From Eledone cirrhosa (taxonomy: Eukaryota), in assembly GCA_964016885.1 (NCBI GenBank), contig OZ024741.1, positions 77,438,001-77,502,000 of the forward strand: a stretch of DNA of 64,000 nt. The letters are read 5' to 3'. Under the pieces are notes generated by a model. It saw only the letters and a list, made by a program, of their open reading frames with translations, did no database searches and was not told where the DNA came from. Of this stretch, positions 12,238 through 62,030 are shown piece by piece. Numbering within the stretch: position 1 is the stretch's first letter; each line of letters starts with the position of its first letter. The translations under genes were made by a program, and so were the position numbers.

Positions 12238-12581
12238 GTATAATAAACAATACAATATAATTACCTCATTACCAGAGGTTTCCCGAATAAGACGAATACA
12301 AGAAACGTCCTCATTCGTTCGTCAGACAAGGCAATTTAAAACATAGTGAAATATTTTAAAAATCTCCTCAAGCAAATTTTTCAAATATTTCACTATGTTT
12401 TAAATTGCCTTGTCTGACGAACGAATGAGGACGTTTCTTGTATTCGTCTTATTCGGGAAACCTCTGGTAATGAGGTAATTATATTGTATTGTTTATTATA
12501 CATTAAATATTTAGCTCTGTAACTTACATAGAGCACTCTTCACTCCTATGACTTTTTCAATTTTCAACGGAAACTTCAATA

Positions 12582-18480: not shown

Positions 18481-18525
18481 ACGGTTTTTTCCATTCATTC
18501 AACCATACATACATACATTCATACA

Positions 18526-20453
18526 TGATGATGTCTGCCCCCTCGTTATCGAGTATGGCCATTGCATGATATACCATTTGCCTTTCATCCTTACGGGGTC
18601 GATAAAATAAAGTACCAGTAATGCACTGGGTAATTGCTGGCCTTGTGCCTAAAGTAGAAACAATTAATTAATTCTATCGTGCAATGCCTGTGCATGAAGA
18701 TATTTTTTAAAGTGAGGAAAGACTGTGCACTGAGCCAATCCCACTCTCTGAGCGACAGTAGCTATAGGTTTTATATCGGAGTTATCCCAGTTTCCTGAGT
18801 TTCCTTCTCCTACATGAATGCCCTGTCAAAGGCTATGGGTCCTTCATTCCCAGTGGTTTAACCGCGCGGTACATGTGTATATACATATTTACACACTTTT
18901 GGATGGCCGTTGAATCTTATGAGTTCTTCCGCCCTTTGTCAGGTTTTGCTTTTTGTCCTGCAGCGTGTCCAAAATCACCCTCCTCACCAAGTAAACTTGG
19001 TTGGGTTGCCGGTTTAGTCGCCGACGACCCGACCATGCGACAGGTTGTACTGGGTTACATGTTACCAGTAGCACTCAAAAGTGACCCGACATGCATACAT
19101 ACATACATACATACATACATACATACATACATACATACATACATACATACATACATACATGGTGGCTGCCAACTCGTTTTCGAGTACGGCCACTACTTTA
19201 TATCCATGTAGGAGAACCCCTACCGATGAGCTGAACGAGTGTGACTTTTTAGTCCCGCCAGCGACTTGAAAACTCTGGTACAAACACTACACCTGTGACA
19301 ATTATTGACACATAGTGCTGGGCCCATGGTACCATGTGACGACAAGTGCAGAGAGATCTCCAGATATAAAGCAATGCCTGTGCCGTGAAGCTTTTATAGT
19401 GAGCAAAGGCACTGCACAAAGCCAGTCCCACTCTCTTAACCAAGATGATATTTACCAAAAAGAAGAACAAGTCAACATCATTGGATACCATCAGGGTTGC
19501 AGGTGTTATATCAGAGTTTTCCTTCTCCTAGAATTCTGCCTTGACAAAGGCTAAGGGGTCATCTCTCTCGGTGATTTTGGATGGCCATTGACTCTTAAGA
19601 GCTCCTTTGCCCTTTGACAGGTTTTGTTTTTAGTCCTGCAGGATGTCCAAAGTCACCCTCCTCACCAAGAAACCTTGGTGGGGTTGCCAGTTTAGTCGCT
19701 AACGACCCGACCATGAGACAGGTTGTACTGGGATACATGTTACCAGTAGCACCAACTGGTGCATACATACATACATACATACATACATACATACATACAT
19801 ACATACATACATACATACATACATACATACATACATACATACATACATGGTGGCTGCCAACTCGTTTTCGAGTACGGCCACTACTTTATATCCATGTAGG
19901 AGAACCCCTACCGATACGCTGAACGAGTGTGACTTAGTCCAGCCAGCGACTTGAAAACTCTGGTACAAACACTACACTTGTGACAATTATTGACACATAA
20001 TGCTGGGCCCATGGTACCATGTGACGACAAGTGCAGAGAGATCTCCAGATATAAAGCAATGCCTGTGCCGTGAAGCTTTTATAGTGAGCAAAGGCACTGC
20101 ACAAAGCCAGTCCCACTCTCTTAACCAAGATGATATTTACCAAAAAGAAGAACAAGTCAACATCCTTGGATACCATCAGGGTTGCAGGTGTTATATCAGA
20201 GTTTTCCTTCTCCTAGAATTCTGCCTTGACAAAGGCTAAGGGGTCATCTCTCCCGGTGATTTTGGATGGCCATTGACTCGTAAGAGCTCCTTTGCCTTTT
20301 GACAGGTTTTGTTTTTAGTCCTGCAGGATGTCCAAAGTCACCCTCCACACCAAGAAATATTGGTGGGGTTGACAGTTTAGTCGCCAACGACCCGACCATG
20401 AGACAGGTTGTACTGGGATACATGTTACCAGTAGCACCAACTGGTGACCTGAC
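18526..20453 (-). mobile_element. Head-to-tail run of three RTE-derived cassettes (B 18526-19090, A 19159-19762, A 19846-20453) separated by (TACA)n
   Basis: Direct repeats visible; - strand carries ctaggagaaggaaaactctg (RTE-type 5'UTR) and a 3' end ...ggcagccacc(atgt)n; no ORF. Confidence 0.8.
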
Positions 20454-28966: not shown

Positions 28967-29015
28967 TATAGATATATATTTCCCTTTCTCTCTCACTATA
29001 TATATATATATATAT

Positions 29016-29215
29016 AGGAAAATGTTGGACCCCGACGGCAGAGCTCAATCCGTTTCGACGGGTATTTCTGAACTCTGGAGTCCAGAAATAGCCGTCGAAA
29101 CGGCTTGAGCTCTGCCGTCGGGGTCCAACATTTTCCTATTACCCACTCTATTACCCTAAGTATTGAGTACTCTGGTGCGTTATGGTCCATCTAGTTCCTT
29201 ACCACTCTTCCTTCG

Positions 29216-29218
<3 letters not shown>
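29016..29218 (+). mobile_element. Fold-back mini-element (13116/16290 family)
   Basis: Palindrome 29016-29139 plus a tail of about 80 nt, with (TA)n on both sides. Confidence 0.85.
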
Positions 29219-29253
<35 letters not shown>

Positions 29254-29256
<3 letters not shown>

Positions 29257-30097
29257 TATGTATACGTACATACATATATGTATACAGACGTACAGTAGTA
29301 AGTATATATATATACATACATGCACACATATATATATGTACGTATGGATTCACCGAACATTTATTATAATGCTCGGTGTGTTTGTAAACAAACATCCCGT
29401 ATTAAGCCGTAGTGTCTAGCAACCATCGTTGCTCATTTGTTCAACACTGACAAAGGAACGCTGTACTAGTTTCAAGCTTATTAGCTATCGTCAGCAACGT
29501 ATACCTTCCTGCCAGATGATTGAACGTCTGAAAGTATATACTTTCCTTATGCATATTAACGGCTGAGCAACCTAATTTGCATATCGAGTGGGTTAATCGG
29601 CTGGGTGCATCGAAAACGATAAACGGAAAAAATGAAACGAAATTTCATTTCCCACTCTTAGTACGGCTGTTACTTAAATATAAGTATGGATACGTACATA
29701 CATATATGTATACAGACGTACAGTAGTATGTATATATATATACATACATGCACACATATATATATGTACGTATGGAAGGTATGCAGGAAGGTATACGTTG
29801 CTGACGATAGCTAATAAGCTTGAAACTAGTACAGCGTTCCTTTGTCAGTGTTGAACAAACGAGCAACGATGGTTGCTAGACACTACGGCTTAATACGGGA
29901 TGTTTGTTTACAAACACACCGAGCATTATAATAAATGTTCGGTGAATCCATACGTACATATATATATGTGTGCATGTATGTATATATATATACATACTAC
30001 TGTACGTCTGTATACATATATGTATGTACGTATACATATATTTAAGTAACAGCCGTACTAAGAGTGGGAAATGAAATTTCGTTTCATTTTTCCGTTT
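29254..30097. mobile_element. Retrozyme-like non-coding HHR element: 1.2 tandem monomers (-) folded back onto a + copy
   Basis: Direct repeat 29254/29682 (period 428 nt); inverted arms 29254-29511 and 29784-30040; HHRs at 29459-29499 (-) and 29796-29836 (+): cgttg-CTGACGA-t agct aata agct t-GAAA CTAG TA-cagcg. Confidence 0.8.
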
Positions 30098-30120
30098 GTA
30101 TGTATATATATATATATATT

Positions 30121-33100
30121 ATGAAAGTAAAACAAAGAAGCCTTCAATACATCAAAAGTCTTTATTAGCCAACAATGTTTCGTCCTATTAAGGACTCATC
30201 AGGGCAATTAAAACAACAAGAAGTATTATCGGCCAATACAAGCCGGAAACTCCGAAGAATATGGAGTGTACATACACTAAAGTATTGCAAGATTATGGGC
30301 AAAAATATATAATAAAAATATATAATAAAAATTACTAAGGAGGTGTATAACATTAAGAACCATATTACAAATATAGTCCAAAGCAAAAAAAACCTAGAGC
30401 TAAACAAAGGTGGTTATATAGAGCAGGAATTATATATAATACAATGTAATATAATATAATATACCTTTACCAATATTAAAATTACAATAAAAATCAAAAG
30501 GTACAATATACATATGTATATATGTACGCACACGTACGCACACATACACATACATCAATACACATATCCATCTTCAACTGCACAAATTAAACCTTATTAA
30601 GAGTTTAAATATAAATAAGCATGATAGGAATAAAAATAATAATAATAATAATAATACATATACCCAATATACATGAGGTAATAATATGATATTATTATAA
30701 GTAGCACATATAATATATAATAAACTATACAATTATATACTACATAATATAATATAATAGAATAGATAATCTCCGGTTAATTTACACAAACAATATAGAT
30801 GTCGCAATAATACTATAATAATAATATACTAACATTTATAATATACAATATATAATGGCATTCAAGTTAACAAATCAATTCATATAGAGTTACAGAGTAG
30901 GTGAGGAAAAATAAATTGTACAATACCCAAAAATTATGATGGTACAAAAATATAAACATCCTACATGATATATAAAGTTTAACATATCATAATGTTACAT
31001 ATAATTAACGGTAAGTAATAAGGATCGATATTACAATAACAAATACAATATAATATAATATAAAATAATTAACATAATATAATATATAATTACTTATAAT
31101 TACAAGGTTGGTAAACAGACATGTATGTGGATGAGTGAGTAAGGGCCAGACAGTAAATATAATGCACAGTAGTATTACAAATAAAATATAAAATATAAAA
31201 TAAAATAAATAAATAGAATCAACCGGAAATTAAAAAACAAAAACAAAAGTATACATTTAGGTCTCACATGCAGTTAAGTAAAAACTTAGGAAATAACCCC
31301 GGTAAATGACTCGAAAACCCTATTTGATAAATTAATATTAAAAATATTTAAAATATCCAATAAGGCAGTATAATATTAGCTATGGTTTAAGTAATTAAAG
31401 TTTATAAACGTTAATATTTCGTTACAAATATTTACAAAAAGGAATGAAATTTTTTACTATCAAATACATAACGATATCTAAAAAACTGACTTAAGCAGAA
31501 TTATGGTAGGCTAATAGGGACAGAAATGAAGAAATATATGGAGGCATAAAATCATAGTCAATATACTATATTAAATAATAGAAAGGAGCGTAAAAGAGGG
31601 GGGGGGGATTAAATATAATCCTAATCTATTTGGAGGGGTTGACAATAAGTTTATGTGCGCATGGGGAGGGGGGATAAGGGGGGGGGTATCCAAAGAAGAA
31701 TCCAAATAAAAATAAAAATAAAATAAAATAAAATAAAATAAAATGAAATAAAATAAAATAATGTAAAATATATAATCAGATATATACTCATAAGGTGTTA
31801 ATAGTGAAAATTTAATGCGTAAGAAGATAGATATGGTATAGTAGCCAAAAGATTATGAGAGCTAGAATAAAGAGTCGTCAAAAACCAATGATAATAATGA
31901 TGATAATAATGGTGGTAAACAAAAGAACCTAAACTAAAAAATAAGTAATGGAATATATCAGCTAATGGATACAATTTGTACTACTAGAACCTTTAGGTTT
32001 ATAATAAAAGTATGAATTAGAAATAGCGTGGGGGCAAGAAGAGAATATCTCAGACTTTCTATTAAGTAAGGATTCGCTAGAGAAAATTATAGAGTGTGTC
32101 TCGAGGATACAGAGATTACAAAATTTAGTATGTGTAGAAAGGTTATTAGAGCGTGCTACTAAATGCCAGTTAAGGCTATATGGTATATTAGCCCCCTTAA
32201 GATCCCAGATATAATGTGCTAAAGAAGTAGAATTCTTAAACTTAACATGTTTGAAATTAGAGATATGAGAGTTAAACCTAGTCTTAAAAGTGTTAGATGT
32301 AGAGCCTATATAAGTTCTATTATAGGAATTAGTTATAACTACGCAAGCATAGACAATGTTACCGTTTAAAGGCAGTTACCGTTTAAAGGGCAGTTAGCAC
32401 TCACTCTACAGTTGCACTTCCGGGTGTTATTGGTTGGCTCAAGTGGTGATGCATTACACGTAGGATTGCTATTAGATAAGGTCTGTTCTGGTGGTAATGC
32501 ATTTCCAGATCTGTTCAAACTAGTAGTATGTAGAGAGGAGAATCCATCCCTAATTTTCCTATTGTTAGTGCTAGCTAAATGAGAACTAATATTAGGGGTG
32601 GTAGAGAATGAAAGTTTAATAACATTTTTATTAAAAATACTATGGTATTTATGAGAAGGGGGGAAATTTTTCTCTAAGATAGAAAAGAAAGACCTAGGGA
32701 TATTAGTTAATACTTCCTGATTATATGGCGGGTTAAAATAAGTATTTAATCTCCTTCTATTTTTATTCTTACCAACTCTACCATTATCAAATATCCCACC
32801 ATCAAGACTAGGGTTACTACAAGGATTAGTTAAAACCGCATTATTAGAATCAGCCAAAATTCCATTAAGTCTCTTACTGTTTCTACCTCTAGTAGATCTG
32901 CTGATGTCTGGAATCCCATCAAAAGGATTAGGGCCAATAATAGGATCAGTAGAAGCAACATTATTAGAATAAGATCTAGCAAAATTATCACCAATGAGTG
33001 AGCGCTCAGAGGGTTCGACTTGTTTCCTAGAGGTATTATATTCACTATTACGAGTCCCGTGGGTTAACTTATGGATGGGTTCAGATACACCTATGTAATT

Positions 33101-33303
33101 TTTACGGTTATTATGCTTCCTACTCCCATTCATAGCCATGTTATGTGATATTATGTTATTATTATTAAAAGTAAGCGGAGACTTTCTAAGGTTACTATTA
33201 TTATAATGAATTTTACTAGAGTAACCGGAATTTGCTAGGGCATTATTATAGTACTCCGCATGTTCATTAAATGTTCCTACGTCCTTAGAGAGTGTGGAAA
33301 TCC
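30121..33303 (-). mobile_element. 5'-truncated Penelope-like element: RT C-terminus, long linker, GIY-YIG, about 1.8-kb AT-rich 3'UTR
   Basis: RISTLSKD...YYNNALANSGY...YFNPPY...CNCR...CPLNGNC; after a frameshift NIVYACVV...YIGSTSNTFKTRFNSH...CNLC...LLNRKSE...CPH; (TA)n at both ends. Confidence 0.9.
30168..30205 (-). ncRNA. Canonical minimal type I HHR at the PLE 3' end
   Basis: gcc-CTGATGA-gtcct taat aggac-GAAAC att GTT-ggc then AATAAA. Confidence 0.85.
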
Positions 33304-33531
33304 TATATATATATATATATATATATATATAATGGAAGTGGGAATAATAAAGATAAAATAAAAACCCCAAAAAACGATATAAGTACATAAAAATAACCGT
33401 GCATATGAGACCTTTGGGTAGTTTTTCCTCATATTTTGGCCTTATTGGTCAGCTGTGTCTTTCATTGTAATTGTATATACGAGTCCTATAGAAATAGATC
33501 CAAATAACATTAGAGTTACATTTATTGACAG

Positions 33532-45559: not shown

Positions 45560-46180
45560 AGCAGTGGATTAACTGAATCGTTAGATACTTTATTATATTT
45601 GTTCTGGCCTTTTACGTTCTGAGTTCAGGTCCTGCTGGGGTTAACTTTGCTTTTAATCTTTCCAGGGACGATGAAATAAAGTACCAGTCAAGTACTGTGG
45701 TCGATGTGATCGACTTTTCCCCTCGCACCAAATTTCTAACCTTGTGCCGAAATTAGAAGCCATTATTATTATTAGTTTGGGGCGGTGGATTGGCAGTATC
45801 GGTGGAGGGTCGGACGCCATGCTTTCCAGCATAGTTACGTCCCTTTACGATCTGAGTTCAAATCCCGCCGAGGTTGACTTTGCCTTTCATCCTTACGGGG
45901 TCGATAAAATAAAGTACCAGTAATGCACTGGGTAATTGCTGGCCTTGTGCCTAAAGTAGAAACAATTATTATTATTAGTTTTATTAGAGGGCGGTGGATT
46001 GGCAGCATCGGTAGAGCGTTGGACAACATGCTTTGCTTCATATAGTCACATCCCTTTACGTTCTGAGTTTAAATCCTGCCGAGGTTAACTTTGTATTTCA
46101 TCCTTACAGGGTTGATTTAATCGACTTTACCCTCCCCCAAAACTGTTGACCTTGTGTCTAAATTAAAAACCATTATTATT
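45560..46180 (+). mobile_element. Three head-to-tail SINEs
   Basis: Copies at about 45560-45770, 45778-45975 and 45988-46180, each ending in (ATT)n. Confidence 0.9.
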
Positions 46181-51599: not shown

Positions 51600-52660
51600 T
51601 GTTTATGAAATTTGGTCCATGTGAAGATGAAATAGAAGCGTAATGGTAGAGTATGTCGAAAATAACCAGCTCCGATGCATTCTCTTGTTACAACCTGTTG
51701 TGGTAAATCTTTCTTGGAGCTTGGCTCTTTTAGGTGAAAGACCTTTGAGATAAATGAATAACCGTGCACCATATCGAAATGGATGAATATGCAAAATGGC
51801 TTGTTTTCGATACCGTGAAACCACTTAAGGACGTTAACACAGCAGTTCCAGGGCTCTAGTCTCGTAATATTCTTAATTTGGGAGTAGCAATGTCGATAAT
51901 GTGCTTGCTAATAAGAAAGGTGTATAAACCTGCATTTGAGATTAGAGGCGAAGTTGGCATTGTGGTTCTTAAATGTGATATACGGTTTGTGCGTGACTAA
52001 ATGGTTCATGTTGCCGTCTATTTATACCTGTATTTGTGGTCATATGAGGAGTGGTTTGGGATTTTTGTGTGTGTTATAGTAATATTATTTGTCAAGGGTT
52101 GGTGGATTGGCAGTATCGGTAGAGGGTCGGACGCCATGCTTTGCAGCAAAGAGTTACGGCCCTCTATGATCTGAGTTCAAATCCCGCCGAGGTTAACTTT
52201 GCCTTTCATCCTTACGGGGTCGATAAAATAAAGTACCAGTAATGCACTGGGTAGTTGCTGGCCTTGTGCCAAAAGTAGAAACAATTATTTGTCACGGGTT
52301 GGGAGTGTGCAATAGCGTTTAGTTCGTATATAGTCTTTGATTTATCTGCAAGTATGCGGGCGTTGAGAGATTGCTTTAATAGGTTCATTCAATTATTCAG
52401 GTTGATTTTAAATGAATTATTGTTGTGTCGAAATGGAATCTTTATAATCGGGTTGTTATTGTTTGATTCGAAGTTGTCAAGGCATTTAACTTGGGAGATG
52501 AGCATTTTAACATTTTGAATGTGTACTTATTTGTTAGTGTTCCGGTAATCCTATTTGCTTGATTATGTTTTCCATTTCTTTGATGAGACATATGATACAG
52601 AGTTCTTTGGATGGTATTTGTATCTTCTTCAAAGAATAAAGGAGGAAATACTTTCCAGCC
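51600..52660 (-). mobile_element. Degenerate PLE RT N-terminal region interrupted by a SINE (about 52100-52290)
   Basis: NIQIPSK..., ADKSKTIYEL...NNIT, FIHFDMVHGYS; SINE flanked by a 19-bp TSD attatttgtca(a/c)gggttgg. Confidence 0.7.
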
Positions 52661-54629: not shown

Positions 54630-54940
54630 TATAGAAATGGCTTCTACAGGACTAGAACTATTTCATTCGAAAGAAATCGTCAGGAAAGCCCTGATGATTT
54701 CTTTCTTTCAAATGAAACAGTTCTAGTCCTGTAGAAGTCATTTACATATATATATATATATTTGAAAAAAGGAAAAGAATGACTTCACTTGTAGTTTTAA
54801 ACAATTTGATTTAATTTTATATACCAAATCATAATATTATAAAATTAAATCAAATTGTTTAAAACTACAAATAAAGTCATTCTTTTCCTTTTTGTCAAAT
54901 ATACTTAACTGTACCAAGAATTTCACACATTTTCTAATAT
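54630..54940. mobile_element. Two small fold-backs; the first turns at an HHR-like core
   Basis: 54630-54745: ..tcgtcagg aaag ccCTGATGA..GAAACAGTTC. 54760-54900: palindrome plus tail. Confidence 0.7.
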
Positions 54941-55518: not shown

Positions 55519-55629
55519 TGTAAAAAGTAAATAGAAATAACAACACAATCGGTACAAGATATGGAAGGAAAATATTAGGTTAACGCTTGAAATAGCAGGA
55601 AGAGGGTCTTAACGTTTCGGACGCTAGTA

Positions 55630-57695
55630 ACTACAGGATCTCCTACTTCCTCTCAATGGTTATACGCCCCATAATCAAGATGTCCCAAGATGTATGTGAC
55701 AGTACAGAGGACCTCCTCAGCAGAATCAGTGAGTGCATAATAGGCAGCATGGATGTGGTGTCACTGTACCCATCCATTAACATTGATTTTGCTGTGAAAA
55801 GATGTGTGGATATGATCATTGAGAGTGAGGTGGAGTTCTGCGACGTCGACACAGACGAACTGGGCCTCCTACTTAGACTTACCTACGACACTGACTACCT
55901 AGACAGCCATGACCTTAGACGTTTCTGTCCCAGTAGACCTATAAGGGGTAGACCCCCCACCATAACCTCAATGGCAAAAAAGACTCCCATGGGAAGGTGG
56001 ATTGGGTGGACCAAAGCTATACAGACCCCCAAAACAATGATCAGGTAAGAAAAATGGTCGCACATGCAATAGGGGCTAGTATCAAAACTACCCTAAAGGG
56101 CCACATATTTAAGTTCAACGAGAAGATCTACACCCAAAATGAGGGAGCAGCCATTGGCGTCAGCATAGCTGGTGATGTTGCCAACCTTTTCATGGTATGG
56201 TGGGAAAGGAGACTTAAAGATCTCCTTAATGAGAGCTCCATAGACTTCATCATATACTCTCGTTATGTAGACGATATCAATATAGTTATAAGAACATCCC
56301 CACTAGAAAGCACTAACAAGTTTGATTTAGAACGTAGCACGATGGAAAGCATCCAGCAGATAGCTAATTCCATACACCAGAATATAACTGTAACTATTGA
56401 CTTCCCTTCCAAACACCCTAACAATAGACTACCTGTATTAGACACAGAACTCTGGATTAACACTAGAGACGAGAGAGCCCAAATTCTCCACTCACACTAT
56501 GCTAAACCCATGGCCTCCAAATACCTGATACTCAAAAACTCAGCAATGTCCAGTAGTGCTAAGTTTAATATTCTGATCGCAGATTTGGTACGAGTGATGA
56601 AGAATGTGTCCCGCATGTGCGACCCAACAGAAATGGAAAGACACATCCAACACTTCATCAACCGCGTGCAGTTATCTGGCTACAACCAAAGAGACAGAGT
56701 TAGAGTATACGAAGGAGCCATGGAGAAGTATAAAACCCTCATAGAACTGGACATGAAAGGAATTTGCCCATTATACAGGAGCAAATCATGGAATAGCTTA
56801 GATAGGGCTAGACATAAGATAGGGAAAGCCACCTCATGGTACGACAACCAGAGATACCAGAGTGTCATGTTTGTGGACGCTACCCCCGGAGGGAAATTAG
56901 CTAACCAGTGTAGAAAGGCCCTGAGAAAGACCCACTTAAAAATTAAGGTGGTAGAAAAGCCATAAAATCCCTGATCAGCAAAACCTACCCTTTTAAGAAA
57001 ACCCACTGTACCAATAGGCAGTGTATCATATATAAGGTAAACCCCCGGATAAACTGTAAAACTAGAAACGTAGTCTATAGCATAAGATGTACAGAGGGTA
57101 CTTGCAGAAACATGACAACAACATACATAGGTGAGACAGCTCGTAGCATAGGTGAAAGGATAGACCAACACTGGGGGGAACTAAAAGGACGAAAAAACGG
57201 GTCAGTGCTATACGAACATGCTAGACAACAACATGACGGTAACATAGACAACATAGAAATTAGAATAATATCTAAACATAGAAATGACCCAGCAGATAGG
57301 CAAATCAGAGAGGCCAGTGAAATAGAAATTAGAAGGCCAAGACTAAACAGAAAGAATGAATGGAATAACAACAACACCCAAACAAACAACACTGACCTAA
57401 GAGAAGTATAAATAAGTAAATAAAATAAAATAAATAAATAAATAAATACACAAACACAATAACAACAAGCACATAAACACACACTAGTCACCCATCACAC
57501 AGCAAACAAAACACTATACACACACGGAAACGTATGCGCAAAGAAGACAAAATAAAATAAACAAACAAGCAAATAAATAAATAAATATATAGACAGACTG
57601 AATAAAAATGGCGTAGACATATAATACAACAGGAGGAAACGATAACACCACTGACGATGTTGCAGATGTGCAACGAAAGATTTATGAAAACTATA
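55630..57695 (+). mobile_element. 5'-truncated, frameshifted Penelope-like (Neptune-like) element
   Basis: SMDVVSLYPSI, GAAIG, YSRYVDD, Cys-rich linker, VVYSIRC...YIGETARSIGERIDQH; 3'UTR with HHR. Confidence 0.93.
57649..57686 (+). ncRNA. Type I HHR at the PLE 3' end
   Basis: ca-CTGACGA-t gttgca gatg tgcaac-GAAA gatt TA-tg. Confidence 0.7.
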
Positions 57696-57701
57696 TATAT
57701 A

Positions 57702-58415
57702 TGTTGTTATACTTTGGGAGGGTCATGTTGACAATAAGAAACACACGCACCAGTTGCTTTCACTTCAATTTATTATATATTTATAAATTTACAAATTTAT
57801 AAATTTATAAATTTCTGGTTGGTTGGTTGGTTCCACAACCAGATAGTTGTTTATATATAGTCATAGTCCTTTCGTCACACACTCTGTGACCTCTTCAGTG
57901 ACTGGGGATTCCTTTCTTTGTTTCTGTGCCTCTCCTTTGTTCTGTCCTACGCCATTTTGTTTCTGTGTGTGTGTTGTGTGCTCAACCAATAACATGTAAA
58001 TAAATAAATAAATAAACAAATAGATAAATGAACATAAACACACACAGACACCCGGGTGTGGCGCATGCGCAAACTGAGCACACAACACACACACAGAAAC
58101 AAAATGGCGTAGGACAGAACAAAGGAGAGGCACAGAAACAAAGAAAGGAATCCCCAGTCACTGAAGAGGTCACAGAGTGTGTGACGAAAGGACTATGACT
58201 ATATATAAACAACTATCTGGTTGTGGAACCAACCAACCAACCAGAAATTTATAAATTTATAAATTTGTAAATTTATAAATATATAATAAATTGAAGTGAA
58301 AGCAACTGGTGCGTGTGTTTCTTATTGGCAACATGACCCTCCCAAAGTATAACAATATCAGTTTCAACACACGATTTCAGATAAAGAATCTTGCTAAACA
58401 AATTCAGAAACGAAA
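57702..58415 (+). mobile_element. Fold-back PLE end with HHR pair (57859-57903 -, 58156-58200 +)
   Basis: Arms of about 280 bp at 57702-57983 and 58075-58358, plus tail; agtca-CTGAAGA-g gtcaca gagtg tgtgac-GAAA ggac TA-tgact; same family as 25378-25940. Confidence 0.88.
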
Positions 58416-58678
58416 TATATATATATGTGTTTGTGTCTATATTGTATCTGTATTATTTTTGACCGTCGGTCAGTCAATGGCAACATTGAGGACCGAGTAA
58501 GTTAGATTACCGATATAAAAGACACAGAAGCGAGAAGCGAAAACCAACCAAACAGTGAGTGTGTTCTGTTGTTAATTCTGGCAATATTACACAAATATGA
58601 CCCACCCCAAGTATAACAATATTTGTTTCGACACACGATTTCATATAAAAAAACCTCGCAAAACTAATTCATCGCCGC

Positions 58679-58755
<77 letters not shown>

Positions 58756-59822: not shown

Positions 59823-59980
59823 CACGCCATGCTTTCCAGCATACTTACGTTCCTTTACGATCTGAGTTCAAATCCCGCCGAGGTTGACTTTGCCTTTCAT
59901 CCTTACGGGGTCGATAAAATAAAGTACCAGTAATGAACTGGGTTATTGCTGGCCTTGTGCCTAAAGTAGAAACAAATATT
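59823..59980 (+). mobile_element. 5'-truncated SINE
   Basis: B box + Nin core + 3' end. Confidence 0.88.
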
Positions 59981-60057
59981 ATATTATAAAATTAAATCAA
60001 ATTATTTAGCACTACAAGTGAAGTCATTCTTTTCCTTTTTTTAATATATATATATTT

Positions 60058-61245: not shown

Positions 61246-61261
61246 ATATATATATATATAT

Positions 61262-61999
61262 ATGTAAGTATGTATACATACATACATACATACATACATA
61301 TATGTATACAGACGTACAGTAGTATGTATATATATACATGCACACATATATATATGTACGTATGGGTTTACCGAACATTTATTATAATGCTCGGTTTGTT
61401 TGTAAACAAACAGCTCGAATTACGCCGTACAGTGTTCGGCAACCATCGTCGCCTTTTTGTTCAACACTGACACGGGAACGATGTACTAGTTTCAAGCTTA
61501 TTAGCTATCGTCAGCATCGTATTCCTTCCTGTCAGATGATTGAACGTTTGAAAGTATATACTTTCCTTATGCATATTAACTCCTTATGCATATTAACTCG
61601 ATATGCAAATTAGGCTGCTCAGCCATTAATATGCATAAGGAAAGTATATACTTTCAAACGTTCAATCATCTGACAGGAAGGAATACGATGCTGACGATAG
61701 CTAATAAGCTTGAAACTAGTACATCGTTCCTTTGTCAGTGTTGAACAAAAAGGCGACGATGGTTGCCGAACACTGTACGGCGTAATTCGAGTTGTTTGTT
61801 TACAAACAAACCGAGCATTATAATAAATGTTCGGTAAACCCATACATACATATATATATGTGTGCATGTATATATATATATATATATATATACATACTAC
61901 TGTACGTCTGTATACATATATGTATGTACGTATACATACTTACATTTAAATATGAGCCTTACTAAGAGTGAGAAATGAAATTTCGTTTCATTCTTTTCC

Positions 62000-62003
<4 letters not shown>
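61262..62003 (+). mobile_element. Fold-back copy of the 428-nt HHR family (HHRs 61479-61519 -, 61686-61726 +)
   Basis: Arms about 61262-61579 and 61626-61944, tail to 62003; cgatg-CTGACGA...GAAA CTAG TA-catcg. Confidence 0.88.

Positions 62004-62030
<27 letters not shown>

Follow-up and report, generated by a model that had tools for sequence, protein, structure and literature searches.

Two-armed, one-tailed insertions of a 428-nt non-coding repeat with a predicted hammerhead suggest PLE-mediated mobilisation in Eledone cirrhosa

Retrozymes and their link to PLEs form an already published class. According to the available text of Cervera & de la Pena (2020; PMC7229834), metazoan non-LTR retrozymes are non-coding tandems of low GC content with one type I hammerhead per unit, ranging from dimers to long multimers and co-existing with PLEs, traits that recur in the family described here; their mollusc case is Mytilus, with units of 350-390 bp. 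EN+ PLEs, in turn, are described as carrying an optional tail on one inverted pLTR (PMC3846280; PMC8557442 Fig. 2), and the accessible account of PLE reverse transcription gives two RT start sites bracketing the tail, nicking and extension of both strands, a predicted dimer and an AT-rich target (PMC11167929). The literature that we searched contained no published account of the 428-nt family, nor one of retrozymes with tail or inversion signatures, with the proviso that the supplements of Cervera 2020 and Li 2026 may list related elements; the words 'ribozyme' and 'retrozyme' are both absent from the main text of the Octopus vulgaris repeat paper.

We analysed a stretch of 64,000 nucleotides (G000:C2:77438001-77502000, hereafter the window) and ran pattern searches across the 3.0-Gb genome (1,796 contigs). 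Unit coordinates (u) run along the hammerhead strand from u1 at 29681 and comprise segments D (u1-61) and A (u62-169), the hammerhead region (u170-242) and segments B (u243-333) and C (u334-428). The first-pass annotation had seen a direct repeat of head-to-tail monomers in 29254-30097; rather than two tandem monomers, the interval is a head-to-head, two-armed insertion in (TA)n, with a 256-bp inverted arm of 99% identity (29257-29512 versus 29783-30038) that this annotation did not mention (Table 1). The direct repeat that it reported does have an offset of 428, but extends over merely 102 bp at 97% identity, mostly TA-rich palindrome. Likewise, one hammerhead per unit agrees with the CTGACGA at 29494 on the minus strand, but the minus arm holds a single hammerhead, and the second in the interval (29801) lies on the opposite strand. 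Its other observations stood: the minus strand runs past the tail end (TTTTCCGTTT, 29630-29621) and at 29620 passes directly into the sequence that lies upstream of the hammerhead; on the plus strand the tail is a genuine terminus, at 30097 and again near 62003; and there is no ORF, a natural pair of adjacent units having ATG ORFs of at most 71 aa. The tail-less arm stops at u428 and the tailed arm 61 nt further on.

Table 1. Coordinates of the insertion and its surroundings in the window, and loci of the related families
Feature	Position	Strand	Remarks
(TA)n target microsatellite, left side	29217..29253		sequence
Tail-less arm, 1.24 units (C hairpin, tail segment D, A, hammerhead, B, C hairpin)	29247..29776	-	3' end enters (TA)n
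Segment C, TA-rich palindromic hairpin	29247..29348	-	alone has a direct repeat at offset 428, with its other copy at 29675-29776
Predicted minimal type I hammerhead, first copy	29458..29500	-	predicted cut 29464/29463
ATGCAAAT octamer, predicted promoter element	29575..29582	-	80 nt upstream of hammerhead core; also in two related families
Segment D, 61-nt 'tail' with hairpin, internal here	29621..29681	-	read through into next unit; junction 29621/29620
Head-to-head joint of two 5'-truncated arms	29774..29790		GGA microhomology, then short templated repeat (GGAAGGTAT)
Inverted tailed arm, 0.7 unit (hammerhead, B, C, tail D)	29783..30097	+	99% identical to first arm
Predicted hammerhead, second copy, opposite strand	29795..29837	+	predicted cut 29831/29832
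Terminal 61-nt tail of plus arm	30037..30097	+	sequence
(TA)n target, right side	30098..30121		shared, tail-to-tail, with unrelated coding PLE (30121-33360, minus)
Second family insertion, ~88% identical	61258..62005		tail-less minus arm and tailed plus arm, head-to-head near 61580-61596
466-nt sister family, examples	L231:3396-5248 (G000:C3:101.99 Mb); L255-L264, L295-L314		arms up to 16 units, 68-70-nt tail
Sister-family insertions with locus-unique fixed alleles	L303, L314, L298, L312, L296, L285, L240, L253
441-nt family	L323, L325, L326, L330, L333, L334, L337, L339-L341

With a single hammerhead on each strand, the locus is unable to release a monomer; it is a dead-end product and no source of circles. 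Several other repeats were seen in the window. At 29000-29216 there is a short repeat, non-coding and with an inverted repeat of high GC content inside it; this element recurs next to (TA)n tracts, often adjoining 428-family insertions, and was also found beside L006, L012, L066, L095 and L122. Inverted pairs of hammerhead-like cores at 12325-12414 and 54683-54691 are probably ends of other PLE-type elements, and an abundant, dispersed SINE-like repeat lies at 18512-18670, 45814-45972, 52133-52291 and 59824-59982.

Exact-pattern searches of the genome returned 7,592 matches to the tail, 3,062 to the tail-to-A junction and 12,554 to the hammerhead, while reversed controls returned 0. The junction at 29620 is therefore not confined to this locus, and all 40 sequences scored (of 850 candidates) span it at 96-100%. 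The tandem arrays that the first-pass annotation suggested looking for exist: one has ~24 units, another at least 35 full units, and sizes overall run from 2 to >35 units of 420-430 nt each, none of the arrays examined having a long ORF. Long arrays contain higher-order repeats, ABAB at C1:49.58 Mb (L165) and period 5 at C5:83.33 Mb (L169), indicating that DNA-level duplication acts on them. Higher-order periods of 2, 5, 4 and 6 (L165, L169, L166-L167 at C1:51.77 Mb, and L298) could separately reflect satellite-like turnover, multimeric templates or assembly effects. A plant-type LTR retrozyme (type III hammerhead in LTRs, PBS, PPT, 4-bp TSD) was rejected on the type I topology, the tandem and inverted arms and the lack of an internal region. 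As judged from its sequence, this is a large, real family that carries the sequence features of non-LTR retrozymes and appears to work like one.

A sister family with a 466-nt unit is 63% identical to the 428 unit and has a canonical hammerhead (G-C closing pair, GUC). It gave 1,633 exact hammerhead matches, and among the best 40 of the candidates scored, 40/40 were 100% identical; with so many identical copies, the sister appears to be young.

The predicted hammerhead of the 428 unit consists of stem I (ACGUUG:CAGCGU), CUGACGA, a stem II closed by U.U, GAAA, a short palindromic stem III (C-UA-G) and a GUA cleavage triplet. In sequence and predicted structure each unit thus has one type I hammerhead, albeit one with a U.U closing pair and no Rfam Hammerhead_1 match for its motif down to E=10. 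An Rfam search found nothing at gathering level; Hammerhead_1 scored the hammerhead of the neighbouring PLE (30164-30208) at 29.1 bits, below the cut-off of 34, and sub-threshold miRNA matches on the TA-rich hairpin were rejected as compositional. In most windows the fold of the isolated motif was no better than that of shuffled sequences, with z-scores of -1.5 to 0.1, as against -2.65 for the 61-kb copy; the whole-unit z of -7.7 was set aside, because the palindromic TA hairpin inflates the folding score. The evidence for the motif lies in its conservation. The core is intact in 97/107 copies of a sample chosen on the motif, and across 48 loci not chosen on it, none of the 234 other 31-nt windows is as well conserved as the core. 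Within the family, the u185/u221 pair is U.G in 97, A-U in 26 and G.U in 17 of 149 sequences, and in an alignment of four sequences, few enough to be indicative only, 5 of 13 pairs changed on both sides with stem I 100% paired. A core that is the most conserved part of a non-coding unit and covaries between families 63% identical points to a selected structure. The U.U pair has a parallel in the axolotl HHR_Amex2, which has the same pair at the helix II base and is reported in the available text of PMC7229834 to show weak cleavage of the monomer but good cleavage of the dimer. Among predicted Xenopus retrozymes, cleavage was found in 1/9, according to the accessible part of Li et al. (bioRxiv 10.64898/2026.07.22.740005).

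To describe insertions, we took the loci of the hammerhead matches listed on C1:1-36.3 Mb (76 loci, 78 insertions). Among these listed matches, 41 of the 78 insertions are two-armed and head-to-head (27 with one tail, one with two, 13 with one end damaged), 36 are one-armed (18 tailed, 10 tail-less, 8 damaged) and one is ambiguous. Exactly one tail is thus present in 27 of the 28 listed two-armed insertions with both ends intact (p=1e-7). Alternating AT adjoins 79/97 intact 3' ends of the same listed matches versus 8/38 5' ends, marking a microsatellite target, and the junction is read through in 58 of these 78 insertions. Again, the sister family showed one tail in all 27 two-armed insertions with intact ends (19/19 consecutive C1 loci, 8/8 others), so that the two families pooled give exactly one tail in 54/55. 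An automatic count over 21 loci selected on the junction, including the window locus, gave six one-tail, two no-tail and one two-tail case. By coordinates and flanks we read both no-tail cases as composites, L004 being an inverted duplication with its flanks and L017 two merged insertions; L018 is a genuine two-tail exception, and the two-tail case L094 also remains one. One nested copy, L008, has a target-site duplication of ~10-12 bp.

The family therefore has the traits of a non-autonomous PLE: two alternative 3' ends that differ by the tail, variable 5' truncation and an inverted 5' copy. Coding PLEs of this genome likewise end in (TA)n in these two ways, their tails being ~60, 68 and 90 nt long. 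This two-armed inverted layout, with one tailed and one tail-less end, is the strongest evidence for PLE mobilisation. That there is nearly always one tail suggests coupled priming, in which a single event would start synthesis on both of the cut DNA strands, likely on circular or multimeric RNA; the two ends of one insertion would then be made together, each strand from a different start site. We put the probability at roughly 0.7 that the locus is a two-armed insertion of an abundant non-coding repeat with a predicted hammerhead, copied in trans by a PLE RT/GIY-YIG protein from circular or uncleaved multimeric RNA.

The 5' ends bear on the nature of that template. They fall near the predicted cut in 1/120 cases in the 428 family and 2/73 in the sister, where an indel at the cleavage site was present in 1/154 units. 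As a cleaved linear monomer would stop the cDNA at the cut, such scattered ends argue for a circle or an uncleaved multimer. Raw identity is uninformative here (3.6% difference within versus 5.5% between insertions), and diagnostic sites were used instead. In the 428 family, the units and arms of one insertion have a subfamily haplotype in common, with differences at 7% of the diagnostic sites outside CpGs, compared with 42% for separate insertions. Eight sister-family insertions carry alleles that are unique among the examined loci and fixed in every covering unit of both arms (Table 1); one of them, L303, combines seven full units and two such alleles with zero private changes. Fixation throughout both arms implies passage through one monomer, most simply by rolling-circle copying. 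Single contigs of 496 and 497 nt (monomer plus 30) for the 466 unit, from two of four sequence runs of unspecified kind, were not counted, because tandem DNA yields the same result as a closed loop.

There are contrary cases. Variants common to the first unit of each arm only occur in L297 (two sites) and L304 (one site), one of these three sites being a CpG, and haplotypes are mixed within one arm in L162 and L085 of the 428 family, so multimers were probably templates as well. The same cases fit PLE-driven insertion from a linear, uncleaved read-through transcript of a homogeneous array, with a weak or incidental hammerhead and no circle. Long arrays are present as possible templates for such a transcript, the U.U at the stem II base agrees with it, and PAc, as far as the available text of PMC11167929 goes, uses unprocessed RNA, with ribozyme mutants inserting normally in vitro. 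We nevertheless consider a purely linear template unlikely, since the fixed, locus-unique alleles in both arms of the eight young insertions require passage through one monomer, and the conservation and covariation of the hammerhead core speak against an incidental motif.

Far less probable is a satellite derived from an orphan PLE pLTR by DNA-level amplification, whose inverted arms would be fold-back or self-priming products. The higher-order repeats of the two long arrays and the inverted flanks of L004 are what such a process would leave; Li et al., in the part of their preprint available, discuss local amplification of solo pLTRs, and Arkhipova et al. suggested that head-to-head repeats arise by self-priming on an antisense template. 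However, this origin does not fit the dispersed copies, whose 3' ends are of two fixed kinds and lie in (TA)n while their 5' ends are scattered, the arms break at different points without mirroring and each has its own target junction, and neither the near-constant single tail nor the target-site duplication at L008 would be expected.

Turning to the partner, we looked for copies joined to an RT/GIY-YIG ORF, and none of the 76 unbiased loci had an ORF running into the unit. PLE remnants lie near 11 of the 76, none co-linear with the unit (judged by coordinates, and by sequence for L158, L130, L081, L104 and L159). Four copies considered as PLE-joined (L006, L008, L104, L081) proved to be nested or adjacent insertions, and a variant with C at the stem II base (L095, L122), considered as an autonomous partner, turned out to be another non-coding subfamily. 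PLE ORFs are very abundant, protein searches giving ~58,000 and ~35,000 candidates, whose GIY-YIG and RVT_1 matches are weak and fall short of the Pfam cut-offs. Among 91 PLE loci of three families and the two window elements, none showed a pLTR with homology to the 428 unit; matches to the 428 unit and its sister near those 91 loci are separate insertions, and the sampled PLE families carry their own, unrelated hammerheads and tails. The PLE that adjoins the locus is 5'-truncated, with an N-rich linker, a cysteine motif, GIY-YIG, a 1.8-kb 3' UTR and its own hammerhead; we read it as Neptune-like. Elsewhere in the window (55596-58700, plus strand) lies a PLE of a young, abundant family, with 97-98% protein identity among top matches and open frames of up to 1,217 aa, which has a 60-nt tail and hammerhead-like motifs of two different kinds, one at 57651 and the other at 57898/58161 within an inverted pair of 284 bp. 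That the unit is merely the pLTR of a coding PLE, and its copies that element's 5'-truncated insertions, is the least credible alternative, since, for all the abundance of PLEs and the one at this locus, the tail runs at every exact junction counted into the unit's own upstream segment and not into an ORF, no neighbouring remnant at the 76 loci is co-linear, and the hammerheads and tails of the sampled PLE families differ from those of the unit.

A possible promoter provides a further lead. The octamer of Table 1 lies at u100-107 of the 428 unit, and a search for it at a distance of 70-100 nt upstream of hammerhead cores found 6,188 matches, against 2 for controls. This search pattern turned up more sister variants and a third family, with a period of 441 nt, the same tandem permutation, three octamer-like sites upstream and two 3' ends in (TA)n, with a tail of ~40 nt. 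Four other loci (L324, L329, L331, L344) resemble further, older octamer-plus-hammerhead families. Since the octamer is imposed by the pattern and most matches are copies of a few families, we treat the promoter as a lead only. Among coding-PLE hammerheads, 1/47 has an octamer within 200 nt upstream. The promoter of newt satellite 2 contains an octamer. That hammerhead satellite is described as being transcribed from an internal snRNA-type promoter (PMC2220036, available part), and the likeness is to a hammerhead repeat with an internal promoter, here predicted from an octamer 70-100 nt upstream of the hammerhead in three families.

Taking up again the preferred reading, in which a PLE copies circular or multimeric RNA in trans, we envisage the following course. 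Multi-unit arrays elsewhere would give rise to transcripts, possibly started at an internal promoter that includes the octamer; cleavage by the hammerheads would turn these into ~420-430-nt monomers, which a host ligase may circularise. A PLE protein, probably a dimer, would nick both strands of (TA)n and prime reverse transcription on each, on one strand at the tail-less site and on the other at the tailed site 61 nt downstream. Each cDNA might then be extended around the template, past the intact ribozyme site, over a distance set at random, before microhomology joins the two truncated cDNA ends head-to-head; DNA-level duplication would later reshape long arrays. More tentatively, the families may be active RNA-circle parasites of PLEs, in which one dimer primes both strands in a single event, its subunits at different start sites, and copies a monomeric circle by rolling-circle synthesis. 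Such parasites, if real, would account jointly for three features of all EN+ PLEs, namely tail, 5' inversion and tandems, and the 466-nt sister would be a system that still moves and has an octamer-type promoter of its own.

Overall, the arrays, the insertion signature and the sharing of alleles support what the first-pass annotation had proposed, a retrozyme-type family of non-coding head-to-tail monomers that may use a multimeric or circular template and PLE mobilisation. Novelty is moderate, the class being known, and the family is chiefly a useful mechanistic test case; what this analysis adds are the one-tail counts, the 5' ends that ignore the cleavage site and the locus-unique alleles fixed in both arms. 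The near-strict one-tail rule yields a prediction that can be counted, namely that at any one target the start sites of the two strands differ, and the young, nearly identical sister with its canonical hammerhead offers material for testing circles, cleavage and partner.

Compared with the metazoan retrozymes of PMC7229834, as its available text presents them, the units here are slightly longer (420-430, 441 and 466 nt versus ~170-400 nt). Circles and cleavage were demonstrated there, whereas here both are predictions; conversely, the tails, two-armed insertions and microsatellite targeting seen here are undescribed in that text, where PLEs figure only as candidates for the partner role. Li, Clavereau & Pollet (2026; bioRxiv 10.64898/2026.07.22.740005) use co-occurrence and pLTR homology, in the accessible part of the preprint, to argue that the retrozymes of animals derive from PLEs and are non-autonomous; their survey, as given there, covers 35 species (31 vertebrates, three insects and one coral), with no mollusc and no insertion-site evidence. 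Chlamys non-autonomous elements such as MRC1, as far as PMC8557442 is available, are likewise PLE derivatives with multicopy head-to-tail insertions, but most Chlamys have no hammerhead and the non-autonomous ones match the 3' end of their partner, a match not found here. With EN+ PLEs the 428 and 466 families have in common partial tandems, an inverted 5'-truncated copy, an often one-ended tail, an AT-rich or (TA)n target and a hammerhead in the repeat, going by the available portions of PMC3846280, PMC8557442 and PMC11167929; unlike these, the units have no RT or GIY-YIG ORF, their tails measure 61-70 nt versus 30-40, and the one-tail pattern, only qualitative in that literature, is nearly strict. 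PLE mobilisation and circular templates of animal retrozymes have so far been argued from co-occurrence and pLTR similarity, whereas here the insertions themselves bear the PLE signature.
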